The position numbers and the translations under genes are program-made. Below the pieces are notes generated by a model. It was not told the DNA's origin. It searched no databases and was given only the letters and a program-made list of their open reading frames with translations. A DNA stretch of 64,000 nucleotides from a bacterium (GTDB taxonomy: Bacteria > Patescibacteriota > Minisyncoccia > UBA6257 > JAGOQP01). Location: assembly GCA_021780155.1 (NCBI GenBank), contig JAJXZH010000032.1:8889-72888 (forward strand), written 5' to 3'. Below, in pieces: positions 2 to 21,743 of the stretch (positions within the stretch are counted from its first letter, which is position 1; every line of letters begins with the position of its first letter).

Positions 2-1510
2 ATTACTCACTGGATAATAAAGTTAAGAAATTGGAGAAAAGAATATGATGACACCGGATTAATTACAACTCCAAATGTCGAAAAAGTTTATGGAGCCATA
101 AGAGAAAAAGCTAAAAGAGCATTAAACGATGAAAATAAAGTTGGCGTTTTCACGCTATTGGGTGAAACAGGAACTGGAAAAACGGTCGCCGCCAGAAGAA
201 TTGCCAAGGAAATGTCCGGTGAGCATAATTATGAATTTATTCAAGCGCATTCCAGGATGGTGCCCGAAGAATTAATCGCCAGATTTGGACTGACGGTAAA
301 TGAAGTTGATCCTCAAAAAGTTCCGGAAATGATTAAATTGGCTCAAGAAAATTTTGCCAAGGATAATCCGGGAGTTGTCGGTGATGATAAAAAATTTGCT
401 TTTGATACGATAGAGCAGGTGGTAAAAAGTAGCGCGGCTCAAAAACAACTTGAAACCAAAACAATATATGAGCCGGTTGCAAGAGCGGCTCAGGAGGGTA
501 AAGTGGTGGTTATTGATGAGTTTAATTATCTATCTCCGGAAACTTTGGCGTCGCTTAACGCTTTTTTGGCGTCAGAACCGGGTAAAAATGGAGTTTTTAG
601 TATGGGTGGGAGAAGCGAACAATTTTTGGTACAAAGAGGATTTGGAATTATTTTTACCGGAAATATAGGAAAGAATTTTTTAAACAGAAGTAAGCTTGAT
701 CAGGCATCCGTCAACAGAATTTTAACAAATGTTTATGAATATCAATATCCGGATCAAGAAATAAATAAACCACTTGCCGAATCAATTGTTAATCCATCAA
801 AAAATAAAGGGTATTCAAGGGATCTTTTTGATTCTGCCGTTACTTTGTTGGCTGATAAAAAAGGTAATGTTTCGGCACCCATCGGAGCTATGGAGAAAGT
901 TTGGAATATGACGCGGGCATTTTCTATAATTCAAAGACTAAATGCCGGCGAAGATTTTAGATCGCTTGGAATAGATGCAGATGGAGGATTGGAGCAAAAG
1001 ATAACTGGATTTAAATTTGAATCTATAGCACTTTCGTTTAGGCAGTTAAATTCAATAATTGAGGCCTGGAGATCTGAAGGGTTTAGTCAGCCACTTGATT
1101 ATTATTTGTATGACATGATAGTGAGGCCAGCTTTTATATTGGCTCCAAAAGAGGCGGCTCAGATTTTATATGTTTTTAGAAGTTGGGGTGGATTATTTGA
1201 GGGAGAGCCATGGAATTTAATTGAAGTTGATCCAAAGAGTTGGTCAATTAAGGGTTTAAAGATGATAAATAAAAAAGATATAAAATATGATTCCAAGATT
1301 AGCTCGGTAGAATTATCTGATGTTGCTCAGGAAATTTCCGGGCAAGAAATACCGGCATACCAAAAATTTGAAGGTGATGGTGAAGAAGTTAAAAAAAATA
1401 GTGAAAGAATAGAGATGGAGCTTGAAGAAATAGAAACAAATTTTGCCAACGCCGTCAAAGAAATGGAGTCTGTTAGTAATTTAGCTGATATTATTTGTGG
1501 CGATAAATAA
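2..1510 (+). CDS. AAA+ ATPase, MoxR/AAA_5-like; 5' end lies outside the window
   Basis: Reading frame is open from the window edge. Walker A GETGTGKT, Walker B VVVIDEF, and a MoxR-like segment FGIIFTGN...ASVNRI. Long C-terminal extension of unknown function. Confidence 0.6.
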   Translation: MTHWIIKLRNWRKEYDDTGLITTPNVEKVYGAIREKAKRALNDENKVGVFTLLGETGTGKTVAARRIAKEMSGEHNYEFIQAHSRMVPEELIARFGLTVNEVDPQKVPEMIKLAQENFAKDNPGVVGDDKKFAFDTIEQVVKSSAAQKQLETKTIYEPVARAAQEGKVVVIDEFNYLSPETLASLNAFLASEPGKNGVFSMGGRSEQFLVQRGFGIIFTGNIGKNFLNRSKLDQASVNRILTNVYEYQYPDQEINKPLAESIVNPSKNKGYSRDLFDSAVTLLADKKGNVSAPIGAMEKVWNMTRAFSIIQRLNAGEDFRSLGIDADGGLEQKITGFKFESIALSFRQLNSIIEAWRSEGFSQPLDYYLYDMIVRPAFILAPKEAAQILYVFRSWGGLFEGEPWNLIEVDPKSWSIKGLKMINKKDIKYDSKISSVELSDVAQEISGQEIPAYQKFEGDGEEVKKNSERIEMELEEIETNFANAVKEMESVSNLADIICGDK

Positions 1511-1531: not shown

Positions 1532-2260
1532 ATGCCTCTTAACTGCCCAAACATCAAAGAACTCAAAGAAAAGACCAAACAATCTCTGGCCTTGTTAGAA
1601 CAACTCAAAGAAGAGTTCTCTCAAACAGGAAGTGATAAAACAAGACAAGAAATCATCCCACTTCAAAAAGAGGTAGATTCCAATCTGGAAAAGATGAAAG
1701 AGTCCCTTTCTCAATCCATATCCGAAACTCTCAAAGAACAAGGAAATGATACTGTCCCTCCAATCCCCATTAATCCCGAAGGATTTGTTATTGGTGGAGG
1801 TATTATTCTTAAAACCCCAGACATAAAACAACTTCCCATTCTTACAGCTCTCAAAGAAGTTTGTGGAGAGCTTTATGCCCCCTCCGCCACATCCATAAAT
1901 CTCCCCAATCTCAAAGAAATTCATAAATATCTTTATGCCCTCTCCGCCACATCCATAAATCTCCCTAACCTTAAGAAAGTTAATGGAGGTCTTAATGCCT
2001 ACTCCGCCACATCCATAGATCTCCCCAATCTTAAAGAAGTTGATGGAGATCTTGATGCCTACTCCGCCACATCCGTAAATCTCCCTAGCCTTAAGAAAGT
2101 TAATGGAGATCTTTATGTCCTCTCCGCCACATCTATAGATCTTCAATCAATAACGTTAATTAAAGATGATGTCTTTATATCTCAAAAAACATCACCCAAA
2201 GTCGTCAAATATATCCAAGACCTCAAAGAGAGGGGAATAATCAAAGGAGAGATAGCGTAA
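1532..2260 (+). CDS. Repeat protein: N-terminal coiled-coil-like region followed by about five 20-aa LRR-like tandem repeats (consensus LYA.SATSINLPNLK.V.G.)
   Basis: ATG at 1532 is in frame with the track ORF that starts at 1517. A 60-nt DNA period is visible across 1877-2140. Confidence 0.55.
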   Translation: MPLNCPNIKELKEKTKQSLALLEQLKEEFSQTGSDKTRQEIIPLQKEVDSNLEKMKESLSQSISETLKEQGNDTVPPIPINPEGFVIGGGIILKTPDIKQLPILTALKEVCGELYAPSATSINLPNLKEIHKYLYALSATSINLPNLKKVNGGLNAYSATSIDLPNLKEVDGDLDAYSATSVNLPSLKKVNGDLYVLSATSIDLQSITLIKDDVFISQKTSPKVVKYIQDLKERGIIKGEIA

Positions 2261-2359: not shown

Positions 2360-4963
2360 TTATTCAAGGTGCACCTGCTCTCTGAACATTTTAACATAGG
2401 CGGCCAGATAGGGATGATTTTCAAGTTCCGGATCGGATTTTATAATTTCATAAGCGCTGTCTCGGGCAGTCTGGACCAGCTGAGGATTTTGAATGGCTTT
2501 CATTGCCAGGTCGGGTAGTCCAGATTGTTCTTGCCCCAAAAACTGACCCGGACCTCTTAATTTCAAATCAATTTCTGCCAGCTCAAATCCATTTTTGGCG
2601 TTTACCAGCGCCTTCATTCTGTAAGCGGTTGTTTTTGAATTAATATCCGAAAACAAAAAACAATATGATTGATGCTCTCCTCGGCCCACGCGCCCTCTAA
2701 ACTGATACAATTGGGAAAGACCGAAATGTTCGGAACCTTCAATAAGCATTACGGTAGCGTTGGGGATGTCTATGCCGACTTCAATTACTGAAGTGGAAAC
2801 CAGAATATCATATTTTTTATCTTTGAAATCCGTCATTATCTTTTGTTTTTCCGCCGACTTCATTCGTCCGTGCAAAGAAGCGATTTTGAAATTCGGAAAT
2901 ATTTTTTTGGATAATTTTTCCGTTTCTTCTTTAACCGATTTTACCTCCAAATTAAATAACTGGCGGCCAGTCAGGGGAGCTTCCGGATCGGGTGGTTCTA
3001 TTCGCGGACAAATAACAAAAGCTTGTCTCCCGGATTTTATTTGTTGAGTGACAAAATCATAGGCCTTCTGGCGATTAGCTGAAGTCACGGCTTTGGTGAT
3101 AATTGGTTTTCTGTTTTTTGGCAGTTCATTTATCAAGGATAAATCCAAATCTCCAAAGGCGGTTAAGGCGAGAGTGCGGGGTATTGGTGTTGCGCTCATA
3201 CTCAACAGGTGTGGTATCACCAACTCGGATTTACTCTGATTAGACTCGGATTTATTCGGATTATCATAATTTTTGTCGTAAATAATCCTTTGTATTTCTA
3301 GTTTTACATTTCCGAAATTCACCAATAGAGCTAATTTATATTCAGAACCTTTAAGATAATTCCATACTTGTCTTTTTTCAATATTTCCAATAAATGGCAA
3401 TGCTTTCAATTCTAATATTATTTTATTTTCTATTATCAGGTCTGGTTTATACGCGCCAACCTTTTTATCGTTATATTTTATCGTGATGGATTTTTCAGTA
3501 TCGAAATTAATTCTCTTGCTCCGTAGTTCTTCGAGTAGTGCTTTGTGATAAATAACTTCTTTATGACCCGATCCAATTTGATTGTAAACATTAAATAGCG
3601 CTCCTCTTATTTTGTATGTAAGATCTTCGTAAATTAAGTTCGGTTTGGCATCATCCGTTTTTATCCGTGTATTAATCTGTGAATATCCGCGTGTGAGCAA
3701 TGCGCGCTGATTGACTCCGAAACGATGCTGTTCATCAATTACCACCAATGCCGGATTTTTGAATTCAACTCCTTTTTGAATTATAGAGTGAGTTCCTATA
3801 ATTATTTTTATTTTTCCGGATTTGATTTGGGAAAGAAGTTCCTTTTTCGAGATTTCCGTTTCCAGCCCATCTCCATGAAAAGATAATGTTTGGGCCGACG
3901 TTAGTAGCGCTATGCCGTCAGAAAATTCTTCAAAATATTTTTTGAACGTTTCATAGTGCTGGCGGGCAAGGACTTCCGTTGGAGCCATCAAAATTGCTTG
4001 TTTATTATTGTTGGCTACAATTAGCGATGCGATTGCGGCAACGATGGTTTTTCCCGAACCAACATCTCCCTGAAGTAGACGGCTTGTCGGGTGCGTTTTT
4101 TTTAAATCTTCAAGAATTTCATAGAGTGATTTTTTTTGAGCCAGCGTCAATTCAAATGGTATATATGAAAAAAGCTTTTTTATGTATTCCGGAGAATAAT
4201 CGCATGAGTAGGCATCTTGTTTTGAAAGATGCTCCCGCTCGGAAGCGTTTACCAGTTGCAGTAAAAATAAATCTTGAAAAGAAAACCTCCTTTCAGCTTC
4301 TTGAGCTTGTTCTATCGTGTCCGGGTAATGAATTTGAGCAAACGAGTCGGCGAGTGAAGGAAAATTAAATTCTTGAACTACATTTTCCGGCAAAAATTCG
4401 GGACTGTCGGCAAAATCAGGCAATATTTTACTGACAACAAAACGAATCATTTTTGATGTGACCCCTTCGGTTTGGGGATAGACCGGAACCAATCGGCCGG
4501 TGTGGCGAGTTTCCTGAAATTCATCATTAATAATTTCAAACATTGGATTTTGGAATGTAAGATGTTTTCCCTGAAGCATCGGTTTTCCGGCAAAATTAGC
4601 AAACTTTCCTTCTTTTAAAGTGTTAATTAGAAATTTTTGATTAAACCAAACGGCTTTAACCTTTCCGGTTTCATCAGAAATGGTTGCCTCCACTATCCAC
4701 ATTTTTTTGTGGAAAGTTTTATAGATGCCGACTTTTTCTATTTTTCCATAAACTGTCGCTATTTGACCTTCGGCAAGGTCGGATATTTTTGATATTTTTG
4801 AAAAATCCAAATATCTGAAAGGAAAGTAATATAAAACATCTTTAACCGTTTTGAGCTTAAGCTTGGAAAGTTTTTCTGAAATTTTTTGTCCGATGCCTGA
4901 AATTGAAGTTAATGGTGATGAAAAAGAAATCATAAAAAACATTTTACTACTTATTGTCTCCAA
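2360..4963 (-). CDS. recG: ATP-dependent DNA helicase RecG carrying an in-frame ~155-aa insertion (GxxExxY / PD-(D/E)xK-like) between motifs II and III
   Basis: Walker A GDVGSGKT, DEQHRFGV, SATPIPRTL and QLYQFRGRVGRG motifs, plus the N-terminal wedge/OB region. The true start may be the internal Met at 4933. Confidence 0.85.
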   Translation of the reverse strand: METISSKMFFMISFSSPLTSISGIGQKISEKLSKLKLKTVKDVLYYFPFRYLDFSKISKISDLAEGQIATVYGKIEKVGIYKTFHKKMWIVEATISDETGKVKAVWFNQKFLINTLKEGKFANFAGKPMLQGKHLTFQNPMFEIINDEFQETRHTGRLVPVYPQTEGVTSKMIRFVVSKILPDFADSPEFLPENVVQEFNFPSLADSFAQIHYPDTIEQAQEAERRFSFQDLFLLQLVNASEREHLSKQDAYSCDYSPEYIKKLFSYIPFELTLAQKKSLYEILEDLKKTHPTSRLLQGDVGSGKTIVAAIASLIVANNNKQAILMAPTEVLARQHYETFKKYFEEFSDGIALLTSAQTLSFHGDGLETEISKKELLSQIKSGKIKIIIGTHSIIQKGVEFKNPALVVIDEQHRFGVNQRALLTRGYSQINTRIKTDDAKPNLIYEDLTYKIRGALFNVYNQIGSGHKEVIYHKALLEELRSKRINFDTEKSITIKYNDKKVGAYKPDLIIENKIILELKALPFIGNIEKRQVWNYLKGSEYKLALLVNFGNVKLEIQRIIYDKNYDNPNKSESNQSKSELVIPHLLSMSATPIPRTLALTAFGDLDLSLINELPKNRKPIITKAVTSANRQKAYDFVTQQIKSGRQAFVICPRIEPPDPEAPLTGRQLFNLEVKSVKEETEKLSKKIFPNFKIASLHGRMKSAEKQKIMTDFKDKKYDILVSTSVIEVGIDIPNATVMLIEGSEHFGLSQLYQFRGRVGRGEHQSYCFLFSDINSKTTAYRMKALVNAKNGFELAEIDLKLRGPGQFLGQEQSGLPDLAMKAIQNPQLVQTARDSAYEIIKSDPELENHPYLAAYVKMFREQVHLE

Positions 4964-14394: not shown

Positions 14395-14421
14395 AACACT
14401 CTTGCCAAAGAGTGTTTTTTT
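14395..14421 (+). terminator. Rho-independent terminator after tRNA-Ala
   Basis: Stem aacactctt / loop gcca / aagagtgtt, followed by a T7 run. Confidence 0.65.
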
Positions 14422-14464
14422 ATGTATTGTTTGGTTAGCATTTTTCAAACGAAAGGAGACGGTT

Positions 14465-15034
14465 ATGGAAATCGATGATGGCTTGGAAGTTTTCGAAGGA
14501 AGCGATTGCCAAGGATCCGATTGTTACACTAAGAGGTGTCCGATCGATGGATTTGTCCAATTCAGCGAAGTGGTTGAATTGGAAAACCAGGAAATTTACA
14601 GAGCGGTTCTTTTGGATGAATCCAAAAAAGAGGTAGCAATCGGATTTATTGAAACGACAAAATTGGAAAACCAGGAAATTTACAGAGCAGTTCTTTTGGA
14701 TGAATCCAAAAAAGAGGTAGCGGTCGGATTTTTCCATCGTTCGGAAATTAAGCCATTTGATGCGGTTTATGTAAAAGTTATGAATGAAAACGAGGGTGGG
14801 TATCTGGTTTATTACAATGCCACATCTCAAAGTTATGGGTTTATGCAGGGAGGCGCCGTCTGGATTCCCAAAAATTTGTTGTCGGTAATGACAACTCGAA
14901 CGATCAGGGGTATTGCTGATGGCAGGATGGTAACTCTCAAGTGCAAATGTGGGGAAGAACTGGTGATGGCCGTTGGCCTACCAAGAACTTTGGCCGCGTG
15001 TCCCAAGTGCAAGTGTGTTGACCATGTTGTTTAA
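14465..15034 (+). CDS. Cys-rich hypothetical protein with an internal ~32-aa tandem duplication and a C-terminal zinc-ribbon-like CKC...CPKCKC motif
   Basis: RBS aaggaga sits 6 nt before the ATG at 14465. The 96-bp segments at 14576 and 14672 are about 97% identical. Confidence 0.5.
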   Translation: MEIDDGLEVFEGSDCQGSDCYTKRCPIDGFVQFSEVVELENQEIYRAVLLDESKKEVAIGFIETTKLENQEIYRAVLLDESKKEVAVGFFHRSEIKPFDAVYVKVMNENEGGYLVYYNATSQSYGFMQGGAVWIPKNLLSVMTTRTIRGIADGRMVTLKCKCGEELVMAVGLPRTLAACPKCKCVDHVV

Positions 15035-21081: not shown

Positions 21082-21160
21082 CGGATTTTTGTTGGCGAAA
21101 ACGGGAAGGATTTGAATCTTTGATGTTGTTGTTAGTGTAACGATTTTTTCCCGCACAAAG

Positions 21161-21247
21161 CGGAAGGTGGAGGATTCGAACCTCCGATCCCGTTTCCGGG
21201 ATACCGCATTTCAAGTGCGGCGCATTAGACCACTCTGCCAACCTTCC
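21161..21247 (-). tRNA. tRNA-Ser(UGA)
   Basis: 87 nt. Anticodon loop CTTGAAA, long variable arm CCCGGAAACGGG, T-loop TTCGAAT, discriminator G. Confidence 0.85.
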
Positions 21248-21295: not shown

Positions 21296-21670
21296 GGGAA
21301 AAATACCAAAAATCCAAAACCAATAAATGGTTTTGAATTTTGTGGACCGTAGCGGAATCTCACATCGTCCCGATAAATCGGGACTCTCTAAAACCATTCG
21401 GTTTTAGTATTTCCTCTACGGGGTATTTACAAAATACCCCGACCCCCAAAGATTCTAATCCACAAATATCCAAAAATCCAAAACCAATAAATGGTTTTGA
21501 ATTTTGTGGACCGTAGCGGAATCTCACATCGTCCCGATAAATCGGGACTCTCTAAAACCATTCGGTTTTAGTATTTCCTCTACGGGGTATTTACGAAATA
21601 CCCCGACCCCCAAAGATTCTAATCCGCAAATATCCAAAAATCCAAAACCAATAAATGGTTTTGAATTTTG
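21296..21670. repeat. Tandem 163-165-bp repeat (2 full copies plus a partial) directly downstream of tRNA-Ala(UGC); each copy contains the tRNA 3'-terminal 15-mer plus its trailer
   Basis: The string tgtggaccgtagcgga recurs at 21341, 21504 and 21669; the last instance is the real tRNA. Copies are over 95% identical. Confidence 0.8.
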
Positions 21671-21743
21671 TGGACCGTAGCGGATTCGAACCGCTGACCT
21701 CCTCGTTGCAAACGAGGCGCTCTACCAACTAAGCTAACGGCCC
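21671..21743 (-). tRNA. tRNA-Ala(UGC)
   Basis: Anticodon loop TTTGCAA, G3:U70, discriminator A, T-loop TTCGAAT. CCA is not encoded. Confidence 0.8.

Follow-up and report, generated by a model that had tools for sequence, protein, structure and literature searches.

The locus considered here raises the question of whether a small repeat protein, encoded near one end of a 64,000-nt stretch of contig JAJXZH010000032.1 (the whole stretch is called the window), is displayed at the cell surface or works inside the cell. Its gene, gene A, occupies 1532-2260 on the forward strand and encodes 242 amino acids (aa), and a second repeat gene, gene B, occupies 55186-57039 on the same strand and encodes 617 aa; all positions are window coordinates. 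A first-pass annotation, made from the sequence alone, had described the two as a paralogous family of hypervariable surface proteins suited to host attachment. Our analysis leads to a different reading. The gene A protein is, on balance, probably a soluble intracellular leucine-rich repeat (LRR) protein and the exchangeable target-recognition subunit, that is, a sensor or adaptor, of the AAA_5 (MoxR/midasin-clade) ATPase encoded directly upstream. The observations from which this proposal starts are the fold of the protein, the absence of export signals, a conserved linkage to the ATPase together with one natural fusion, the presence of tandem paralogs, and a diversification that centres on a single block of the repeat.

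Fold, family and location of the gene A protein

The tandem repeats of genes A and B, noted in the first-pass annotation with periods of 60 and 63 nt, are real and far beyond chance. Tandem Repeats Finder (TRF) delimits the gene A array at 1853-2142, with a period of 60, 4.8 copies, 79% matches and a score of 345, and the same array read at a period of 120 reaches 85% matches and a score of 412. The gene B array at 56512-56983 has a period of 63, 7.5 copies, 87% matches and a score of 578. Gene A contains five in-frame units of 20 aa, GELYAPSATSINLPNLKEIH, KYLYALSATSINLPNLKKVN, GGLNAYSATSIDLPNLKEVD, GDLDAYSATSVNLPSLKKVN and GDLYVLSATSIDLQSITLIK, with the consensus xGxLxAxSATSINLPNLKEV; the 12-aa core of the unit, SATSINLPNLKE, is conserved, and an 8-aa block, (V/I)xGxLxAx, is hypervariable. 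In gene B, seven in-frame units of 21 aa (GLKLPEHIGGxLxLxxLTSAE) were located at 56548-56988, with half a unit upstream.

The AlphaFold2 (AF2) model of the gene A protein, with the family alignment as input, has a predicted local distance difference test score (pLDDT) of 90.6 and a predicted template modelling score of 0.79. It begins with an antiparallel hairpin of two helices (residues 6-32 and 35-69), connected by a conserved TG[DSN] turn, and continues as a right-handed solenoid over residues 84-215, with three short strands per 20 residues, before closing with a cap helix (222-233) and a conserved tail. A confident solenoid was likewise obtained for gene B, so that the LRR-like fold suspected earlier was confirmed for both proteins by structure prediction. 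At the level of the fold, gene A falls among the LRR-like right-handed solenoids built from 20-30-residue units around a hydrophobic ladder.

In the 10-sequence family alignment, Cys5, G89, L124 and P125 are invariant, as are K238, G239 and I241 of the tail. Moreover, the N-terminal Cys lies at position 4-8 in 21 of the 23 A-like proteins compared and at position 17 in one, often as part of "YCQ". The architecture of the family can be summarized as a Cys at 4-8, the TG[DSN]-turn hairpin, a solenoid whose 20-aa units number from three to nine or more, and a C-terminal helix with a KGxI tail, all of which are found in gene A. It is a small family, with 13 word-index matches among 5.8 billion proteins. 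A search of 1.84 billion representatives with the A profile returned 17 small proteins (<500 aa) among the top 150, aligned from the N-terminal end of the profile, and the 14 of them that were inspected mostly displayed the A-family architecture.

No LRR model was attained in the Pfam scan of gene A, LRR_5 (PF13306) being unmatched even at E 1 and carried only by the distant relatives P0011-P0013. Recep_L_domain (PF01030, threshold 21.8 bits) is passed by the homologs P0003 (36.3) and P0007 (23.8), and the window protein gave no match to it. Scans of genes A and B against Pfam, NCBIfam, PHROGs and PADLOC yielded nothing above noise, the Rfam and tRNA scans found no RNA element at either locus, and a literature search for LRR proteins in Patescibacteria gave nothing relevant. 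With its 20-aa unit and without an LRR_5 match, gene A differs from the TpLRR/BspA-type LRRs (PDB 6mlx, 4fs7, 4h09, 4fdw); furthermore, BspA-like proteins are mostly found at the surface, whereas the gene A protein is predicted to be cytoplasmic. Its sole significant sequence match in the PDB (E 4.9e-4), which is also its top structural match, is FlrP, a Sec-exported periplasmic LRR protein bound to the rod of the Vibrio polar flagellar motor (PDB 8z5u; bioRxiv 10.64898/2025.12.04.692373). FlrP carries a Sec signal peptide, unlike genes A and B, and it has neither the N-terminal Cys-hairpin module nor the ATPase partner of gene A.

The predicted location rests on hydropathy. The maximum Kyte-Doolittle value over 19 residues is 1.18 for gene A and 0.59 for gene B, both N-termini are hydrophilic, and by this argument neither protein possesses a signal peptide, a lipobox or a transmembrane segment. 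The localisation check proposed with the surface hypothesis accordingly returned no export signal for A or B. That hypothesis, in which both are hypervariable surface or secreted proteins of an episymbiont, used for host attachment and varied in phase or length by repeat slippage, now appears improbable, since the gene A protein is also encoded in the same orientation at most 21 nt downstream of a soluble AAA+ ATPase and, in one lineage (P0163), an A-like LRR protein is fused to it. The repeat itself does occur in a different setting: the A-type unit was found in thousands of large proteins of up to 6498 aa, and about 31% of the large matches (35/113) have a hydrophobic N-terminus, for which reason surface versions of it probably exist elsewhere. 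Among the small A-like representatives, however, only 3 of 34 show such an N-terminus. The variation in repeat number and the concentration of the B family in lineages labelled candidate phyla radiation (CPR), DPANN, Bdellovibrionales and Bacilli/Tenericutes also fit a surface role. The 20-aa solenoid unit was additionally observed to build parts of giant proteins of 5000-6500 aa (P0188, P0204, P0211, P0213, P0226).

Linkage to an AAA_5 ATPase

The window opens at residue 190 of the 691-residue ATPase, so that the last 502 codons are present, and they translate into the same sequence as the complete 691-aa protein encoded at the related locus L001 (GCA_027423175.1). The Walker A motif is GETGTGKT and the Walker B motif VIDEFNY; GxTGxGKT, IDEFN, TGN (sensor 1) and the arginines R418/R428 are invariant in the family, which comprises about 50 members of 600-700 aa among the 5.8 billion proteins. 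The full-length protein matches Pfam AAA_5 at 3e-15 (56.9 bits against a cut-off of 22). With a profile of 15 homologs, the AAA modules of midasin were the best solved relative (E 4.8e-17), ahead of McrB and of NorQ, the latter at 0.018, and because of this ranking the upstream gene is assigned to the MoxR/midasin clade of AAA_5 ATPases. The first-pass annotation had thus correctly recognized a MoxR-like AAA+ ATPase directly in front of gene A. A STAND/NACHT identity was considered and rejected: NACHT, NB-ARC and nSTAND models gave sub-threshold matches to the P-loop only, far below AAA_5 and midasin.

Gene A starts 21 nt past the stop codon of the ATPase, and no promoter-like site was found on the + strand between 1300 and 1532. 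The same arrangement recurs elsewhere, a point that the first-pass annotation had proposed for checking. An A gene also lies 21 nt behind the ATPase in L001. In L002, an ATPase 64% identical to that of the window precedes P0004, which has three units. In a metagenome-assembled genome labelled Aenigmatarchaeota (L099/L100), a 693-aa ATPase homolog is followed, with 0 nt between, by an A-family gene beginning MPFCQTFKQ. Three lineages therefore have an A-family gene directly 3' of an AAA_5 ATPase; in a fourth, the ATPase is flanked by small LRR proteins with the same N-terminal module. This fourth lineage is that of the Magasanikbacteria (L096-98), with the order LRR249, MazE-like gene, ATPase661, a 674-aa protein, LRR250 and LRR230. 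The N-terminal Cys of the A family recurs in these small LRR proteins, together with a "QTGTD" motif, but their repeats are classical ones of the LRR_4 type. The ATPase and an A-like module are joined in P0163 (1167 aa), a natural fusion that runs from a coiled coil through the ATPase to the A-like hairpin, EEYKKTGDEELAQ, which is followed by about 18 classical LRRs. A scan of genome contigs with the ATPase alone as query found no relative.

A further gene accompanies the small LRR genes in some genomes. In L003-L005, tandem A paralogs have as their neighbour a 638-aa protein, which shares 36% identity with the 674-aa protein of Magasanikbacteria. The 638-aa protein has the motifs HELAHL (HExxH) and DLSGSM (DxSxS, resembling a metal ion-dependent adhesion site, MIDAS), and DLSGSM or DLSSSM is found across the 638/674-aa proteins. 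An HExxH/DxSxS protein thus adjoins A-like LRR genes in two lineages, in which it is a candidate for the von Willebrand factor A (VWA) partner of the ATPase, a label given by motif only. Two other neighbours were observed in Magasanikbacteria: a MazE-like antitoxin-family gene lies just upstream of the ATPase, and the ATPase/LRR module (L096 3937-9811; L098 476-7094) adjoins the type IV pilus genes pilM, pilin and prepilin peptidase.

Cysteines occur at the facing ends of the two proteins. The window ATPase has a conserved Cys, C688, four residues from its C-terminus (..IICGDK, 1499-1510). Most partner ATPases have a Cys within their last 4-14 residues, often in "LYCQDE", which mirrors the N-terminal "YCQ" of A proteins; the fusion P0163 has no corresponding Cys, either at its own C-terminus or in the linker between ATPase and hairpin. 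This pattern suggests a possible metal or disulfide junction, or a recognition site shared by the two proteins.

Diversification and the proposed recognition role

The locus L001 contains two tandem paralogs behind its ATPase, P0002 (224 aa, 4 units) and P0001 (242 aa, 5 units), the second of which is 99% identical to the window protein. The difference between the two loci is exactly one gene unit of 676 nt, and the window gene A combines the two L001 copies as a clean chimera: over gene nt 1-180 it matches copy 1 at 6/6 discriminating sites and over gene nt 216-729 copy 2 at 59/59, with a private change at gene nt 142. Such a structure is what unequal crossover within 1711-1747 would leave. 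Equally, it would be left by a short-read assembler jumping across the near-identical 5' ~200 nt. The second account, in which the true genome has two tandem copies and the strain variation at gene A is an assembly artefact, is a serious possibility, although we place it somewhat short of even. The switch sits exactly at the point where the paralogs cease to be nearly identical, as they differ at 7 sites in the first 215 nt and at 59 in the next 335. Moreover, four of the six other contigs at the locus break 0-222 nt into the gene, and because these four assemblies of the species end there, the region is clearly ambiguous in the reads. On the other side, the chimeric gene is also present in the independent assembly L006, which differs from the window at 2 positions over 3469 nt, and the window has its private substitution at nt 142; both observations speak against an artefact but would be compatible with collapse even so.

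The first-pass annotation had put the DNA identity of the units within each gene at 85-98%. This holds for the central units 3-6 of gene B (0.90-0.97) but not for its remaining units (0.73-0.89), and "near-identical" does not describe gene A, where pairwise identity is 65-87%. Units so diverged are a poor substrate for slippage, which counts further against the surface hypothesis. Slippage as the main source of variation in gene A is not supported; the variation observed comes from duplication of paralogs, recombination, and point substitutions in the exposed block. Repeat number varies among A-family homologs and, in exact steps of 21 or 42 aa, within the B family, so that this part of the earlier claim was retained; for gene A itself, the same five units were observed in the 99%-identical P0001. 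For gene B, two identical copies are on record, and variation was seen in another B lineage known from short-read assemblies.

Selection within the repeat was estimated from the L001 paralogs. The ratio of nonsynonymous to synonymous substitution rates (dN/dS) is 0.13 in the hairpin, 0.23 in the 12-aa core and 3.95 in the 8-aa variable block, the last value reflecting 20 nonsynonymous and 2 synonymous changes over 24 codons of this single pair; over the whole repeat region it is ~0.9. Per-position entropy, calculated over 60 units of 12 family members, is highest at unit positions 17, 19, 1 and 2 (2.5-3.5 bits), and positions 3, 6-9, 11 and 14 are at or below ~1 bit. In the AF2 model, each turn shows variable and buried positions in alternation around its third strand (GGxLxAxx), as would be expected for an exposed binding face. 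The number of A genes ranges from 1 to 3 across loci.

On this basis, a working scheme can be outlined for the gene A protein as a recognition subunit. The conserved N-terminal Cys and the helical hairpin would dock the protein onto the ATPase, and the solenoid would present its hypervariable face, formed by the x positions of GGxLxAxx, to a changing ligand, which is most likely a protein. The ATPase could then use ATP to remodel the bound target or the complex, in some lineages perhaps together with the 640-670-aa protein bearing HExxH and DxSxS (MIDAS-like) motifs. Diversification of the recognition subunit would proceed through tandem duplication of its gene, recombination among the copies and the gain or loss of units, with positive selection acting on the exposed block.

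A more conservative partnership may also be envisaged, in which the gene A protein plays no part in conflict but serves a MoxR-type chaperone as housekeeping adaptor or client; the chaperone would assemble one particular machine, such as a type IV pilus or another envelope complex, and the variability of gene A would reflect relaxed constraint. MoxR/VWA pairs are classically chaperones of assembly or maturation (PMC7159879), FlrP binds a flagellar rod, and the whole-region dN/dS is compatible with relaxation. However, nonsynonymous changes cluster in one block and selection is purifying elsewhere, and the pilus neighbourhood in Magasanikbacteria, which would suit such a role, was seen in that lineage only. 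Copy number varies from 1 to 3, and the distribution is sporadic, with only the 13 A-family word-index matches and 50 ATPase homologs mentioned above. We therefore regard the housekeeping role as possible but rather unlikely. Because of the sporadic distribution, the variable copy number and the positive selection on one face, the evidence leans towards an intracellular role in conflict or surveillance, with a logic like that of nucleotide-binding leucine-rich repeat (NLR) receptors, as the better fit, the defence function itself being putative.

A close parallel is found in the MoxR-vWA ternary conflict systems, which likewise combine an ATPase of the AAA_5 type with a variable third component and a vWA/MIDAS protein, the latter putative in the present module and seen in two of its lineages. 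In the systems described by Kaur, Burroughs, Iyer and Aravind (2020, PMC7159879), VMAP, an inactive STAND protein, FtsH or a vWA-fused beta-propeller serves as third component. A small LRR protein, which is none of these, takes that place in the present module, and in the main text of that paper "LRR" appears once, in the reference list; an LRR as third component is new relative to the systems described there. The known systems are, moreover, concentrated in multicellular bacteria and not in CPR/DPANN, and the vWA identity in the present case is by motif only. With NLR/STAND receptors the module has in common an NTPase joined to a C-terminal, diversifying LRR sensor, in the domain order also displayed by P0163. 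The resemblance is one of logic only, since the ATPase belongs to the AAA_5/midasin clade and the LRR is mostly a separate polypeptide. A wider interpretation is that the ATPase, the interchangeable small LRRs under positive selection and, where present, the HExxH/MIDAS-like protein constitute an undescribed "split NLR-like" immune or surveillance system of CPR/DPANN, whose LRR paralogs would be sensors of pathogen or host joined to the ATPase via the conserved Cys-bearing junction. This interpretation is offered tentatively, and we consider it doubtful at present.

Several points weigh against a recognition subunit of the kind outlined. The contact between the gene A protein and the ATPase is itself a proposal, and the estimate of positive selection comes from 24 codons of a single paralog pair. 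The one- versus two-copy difference may be the result of short-read assembly collapse. A protein without a Sec signal may still be exported by a non-classical route. As for the third partner, the VWA (MIDAS-like) label of the 638/674-aa protein derives solely from DxSxS: no Pfam VWA match was obtained, and the PDB profile search gave only a weak match to proabylysin (E 0.18). Furthermore, no VWA/HExxH partner occurs in the 64-kb window or, in the same species, within ~6 kb upstream of the ATPase. Finally, a search of PADLOC-DB 2.0 gave no meaningful match for A, B or the HExxH protein, and for the ATPase only weak matches at the level of the P-loop (E at or above 2e-4).

In the tiny genomes of CPR/DPANN, most lineage-specific genes are unannotated. 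The ATPase and LRR module, with or without the HExxH/MIDAS-like protein, is a testable candidate for intracellular recognition of foreign or partner proteins in these organisms, and would extend the MoxR-centred ternary systems by an LRR-based branch. It also corrects an annotation habit, in that LRR repeats in an episymbiont need not imply a surface adhesin.

Gene B and other features of the window

The coordinates of the features of genes A and B and of the ATPase are collected in Table 1.

Table 1. Features of the ATPase, gene A and gene B loci in window coordinates
Feature	Position	Strand	Basis
Partner AAA_5 (MoxR/midasin-clade) ATPase gene, last 1.5 kb	2..1510	+	Pfam, homolog profile, L001 identity
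Gene A, 242-aa LRR-solenoid protein, predicted cytoplasmic	1532..2260	+	Open reading frame; start backed by homolog N-termini
Cys5 codon, N-terminal cysteine of gene A	1544..1546	+	Family alignment
Antiparallel two-helix hairpin, residues 6-69, conserved TG[DSN] turn	1547..1738	+	AF2 helices 6-32, 35-69
Chimera switch interval, L001 copy 1-like upstream, copy 2-like downstream	1711..1747	+	Discriminating sites
Right-handed LRR-like solenoid, three strands per turn, residues 84-215	1781..2176	+	
Five in-frame 60-nt (20-aa) tandem units	1865..2164	+	TRF, unit identities, per-position entropy, dN/dS
Capping helix and conserved tail (..DLKERGIIKGEIA)	2195..2257	+	Family alignment, AF2 model
Gene B, 617 aa, from a separate and very large family	55186..57039	+	
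Gene B N-terminal alpha/beta domain, residues 1-440, invariant GTGWCTAG	55186..56505	+	43 homologs, 12-sequence alignment, AF2 pLDDT about 86
Gene B LRR array, half unit and seven 63-nt (21-aa) units GLKLPEHIGGxLxLxxLTSAE	56512..56988	+	

The repeats of the two genes are related, as the first-pass annotation had proposed from their consensus sequences. Alignment of the A and B family alignments with hhalign gave a probability of 95% and E 4e-8; each unit aligned with one insertion of 3 residues and one deletion of 2. When the A-family profile was searched against the window, gene B was recovered at E 1.5e-9 and nothing else matched; in the 1.84 billion representatives the same profile retrieves B-family proteins such as P0321, which has 21-aa units (E 1.8e-27). 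In P0197 and P0190, the B N-domain is joined to 20-aa units of the A type, such as ATSFEAPQLQSVGGHLDASD. By these profile comparisons the two repeat types are homologous. The relationship ends with the repeat class: genes A and B are judged not to be paralogs, as had been claimed, because their N-terminal domains are unrelated and their families differ greatly in size (13 against >3880 matches).

The AF2 model of gene B (pLDDT 86.4) comprises an alpha/beta N-domain at residues 1-435, a solenoid at 440-598 and a helical cap. The Trp and Cys of GTGWCTAG, W277-C278 (C278 codon at 56017-56019), are invariant, as are P309-R310, E322, R324-G325 and D399-P400-R401. The Trp-Cys pair lies at the N-terminal end of a helix that is followed by a three-stranded sheet, and no His is invariant. 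The domain could be an enzyme with unusual chemistry; no match to it was found in Pfam, NCBIfam, PDB sequences or Foldseek. Compared with the LRR effectors YopM/IpaH/SspH, whose units span 20-22 residues, gene B has the reverse domain order, its N-domain has no detectable similarity to NEL or known domains, and no link to a secretion system was found.

More than 3880 matches to the B family were obtained among 8000 candidates scored, and at least 576 loci in GTDB species genomes were confirmed to carry a member. The labels of these genomes are Patescibacteria/CPR, Nanoarchaeota, Bdellovibrionales and uncultured Bacilli/Tenericutes. In the window, gene B directly follows parA-parB with a gap of 13 nt. 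This association was not maintained, as the three homologs looked up, at two distinct loci, are without parAB. A mobile-element or "cargo" origin is likewise unsupported: tblastn searches with gene A and the gene B N-domain against a phage collection, and with the latter against a plasmid collection, gave no relatives. In one B lineage of 53 proteins, there are length differences of exactly 21 or 42 aa between proteins whose first 440 and last 60 residues are 100% identical, all of them coming from short-read assemblies. Gene B is a conserved Cys-containing domain joined to a homologous, independently evolving LRR array that changes length in 21-aa steps. The same lineage has tandem pairs of B paralogs (L007 3172-4887 and 5001-7463; L012 2983-4887 and 5001-7658), which vary between strains, again in short-read assemblies, at 571 against 634 aa (three 21-aa units) and at 820 against 885 aa. 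A family of this extent (at least 576 species, >3800 proteins), and unannotated, would repay structural and biochemical work.

Three features unconnected with the repeat genes were recorded. The recG helicase gene at 2360-4963 on the minus strand has a PD-(D/E)XK_3 domain (PF13366) inserted between DEAD and Helicase_C, according to the Pfam matches of the identical gene in L006, and the insert is visible in the window translation as ..LIYEDLTYKIRGALFNVYNQIGSGHKEVIYHKAL... At 21301-21684, a 164-nt unit is repeated in 2.3 copies with 98% identity; this repeat sits between tRNA-Ser(tga) (21160-21247) and tRNA-Ala(tgc) (21670-21743), both on the minus strand, and overlaps the end of the latter. 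A further repeat, with a unit of 84 nt in 1.8 copies and 95% identity, lies at 14577-14731 within the open reading frame 14402-15034.

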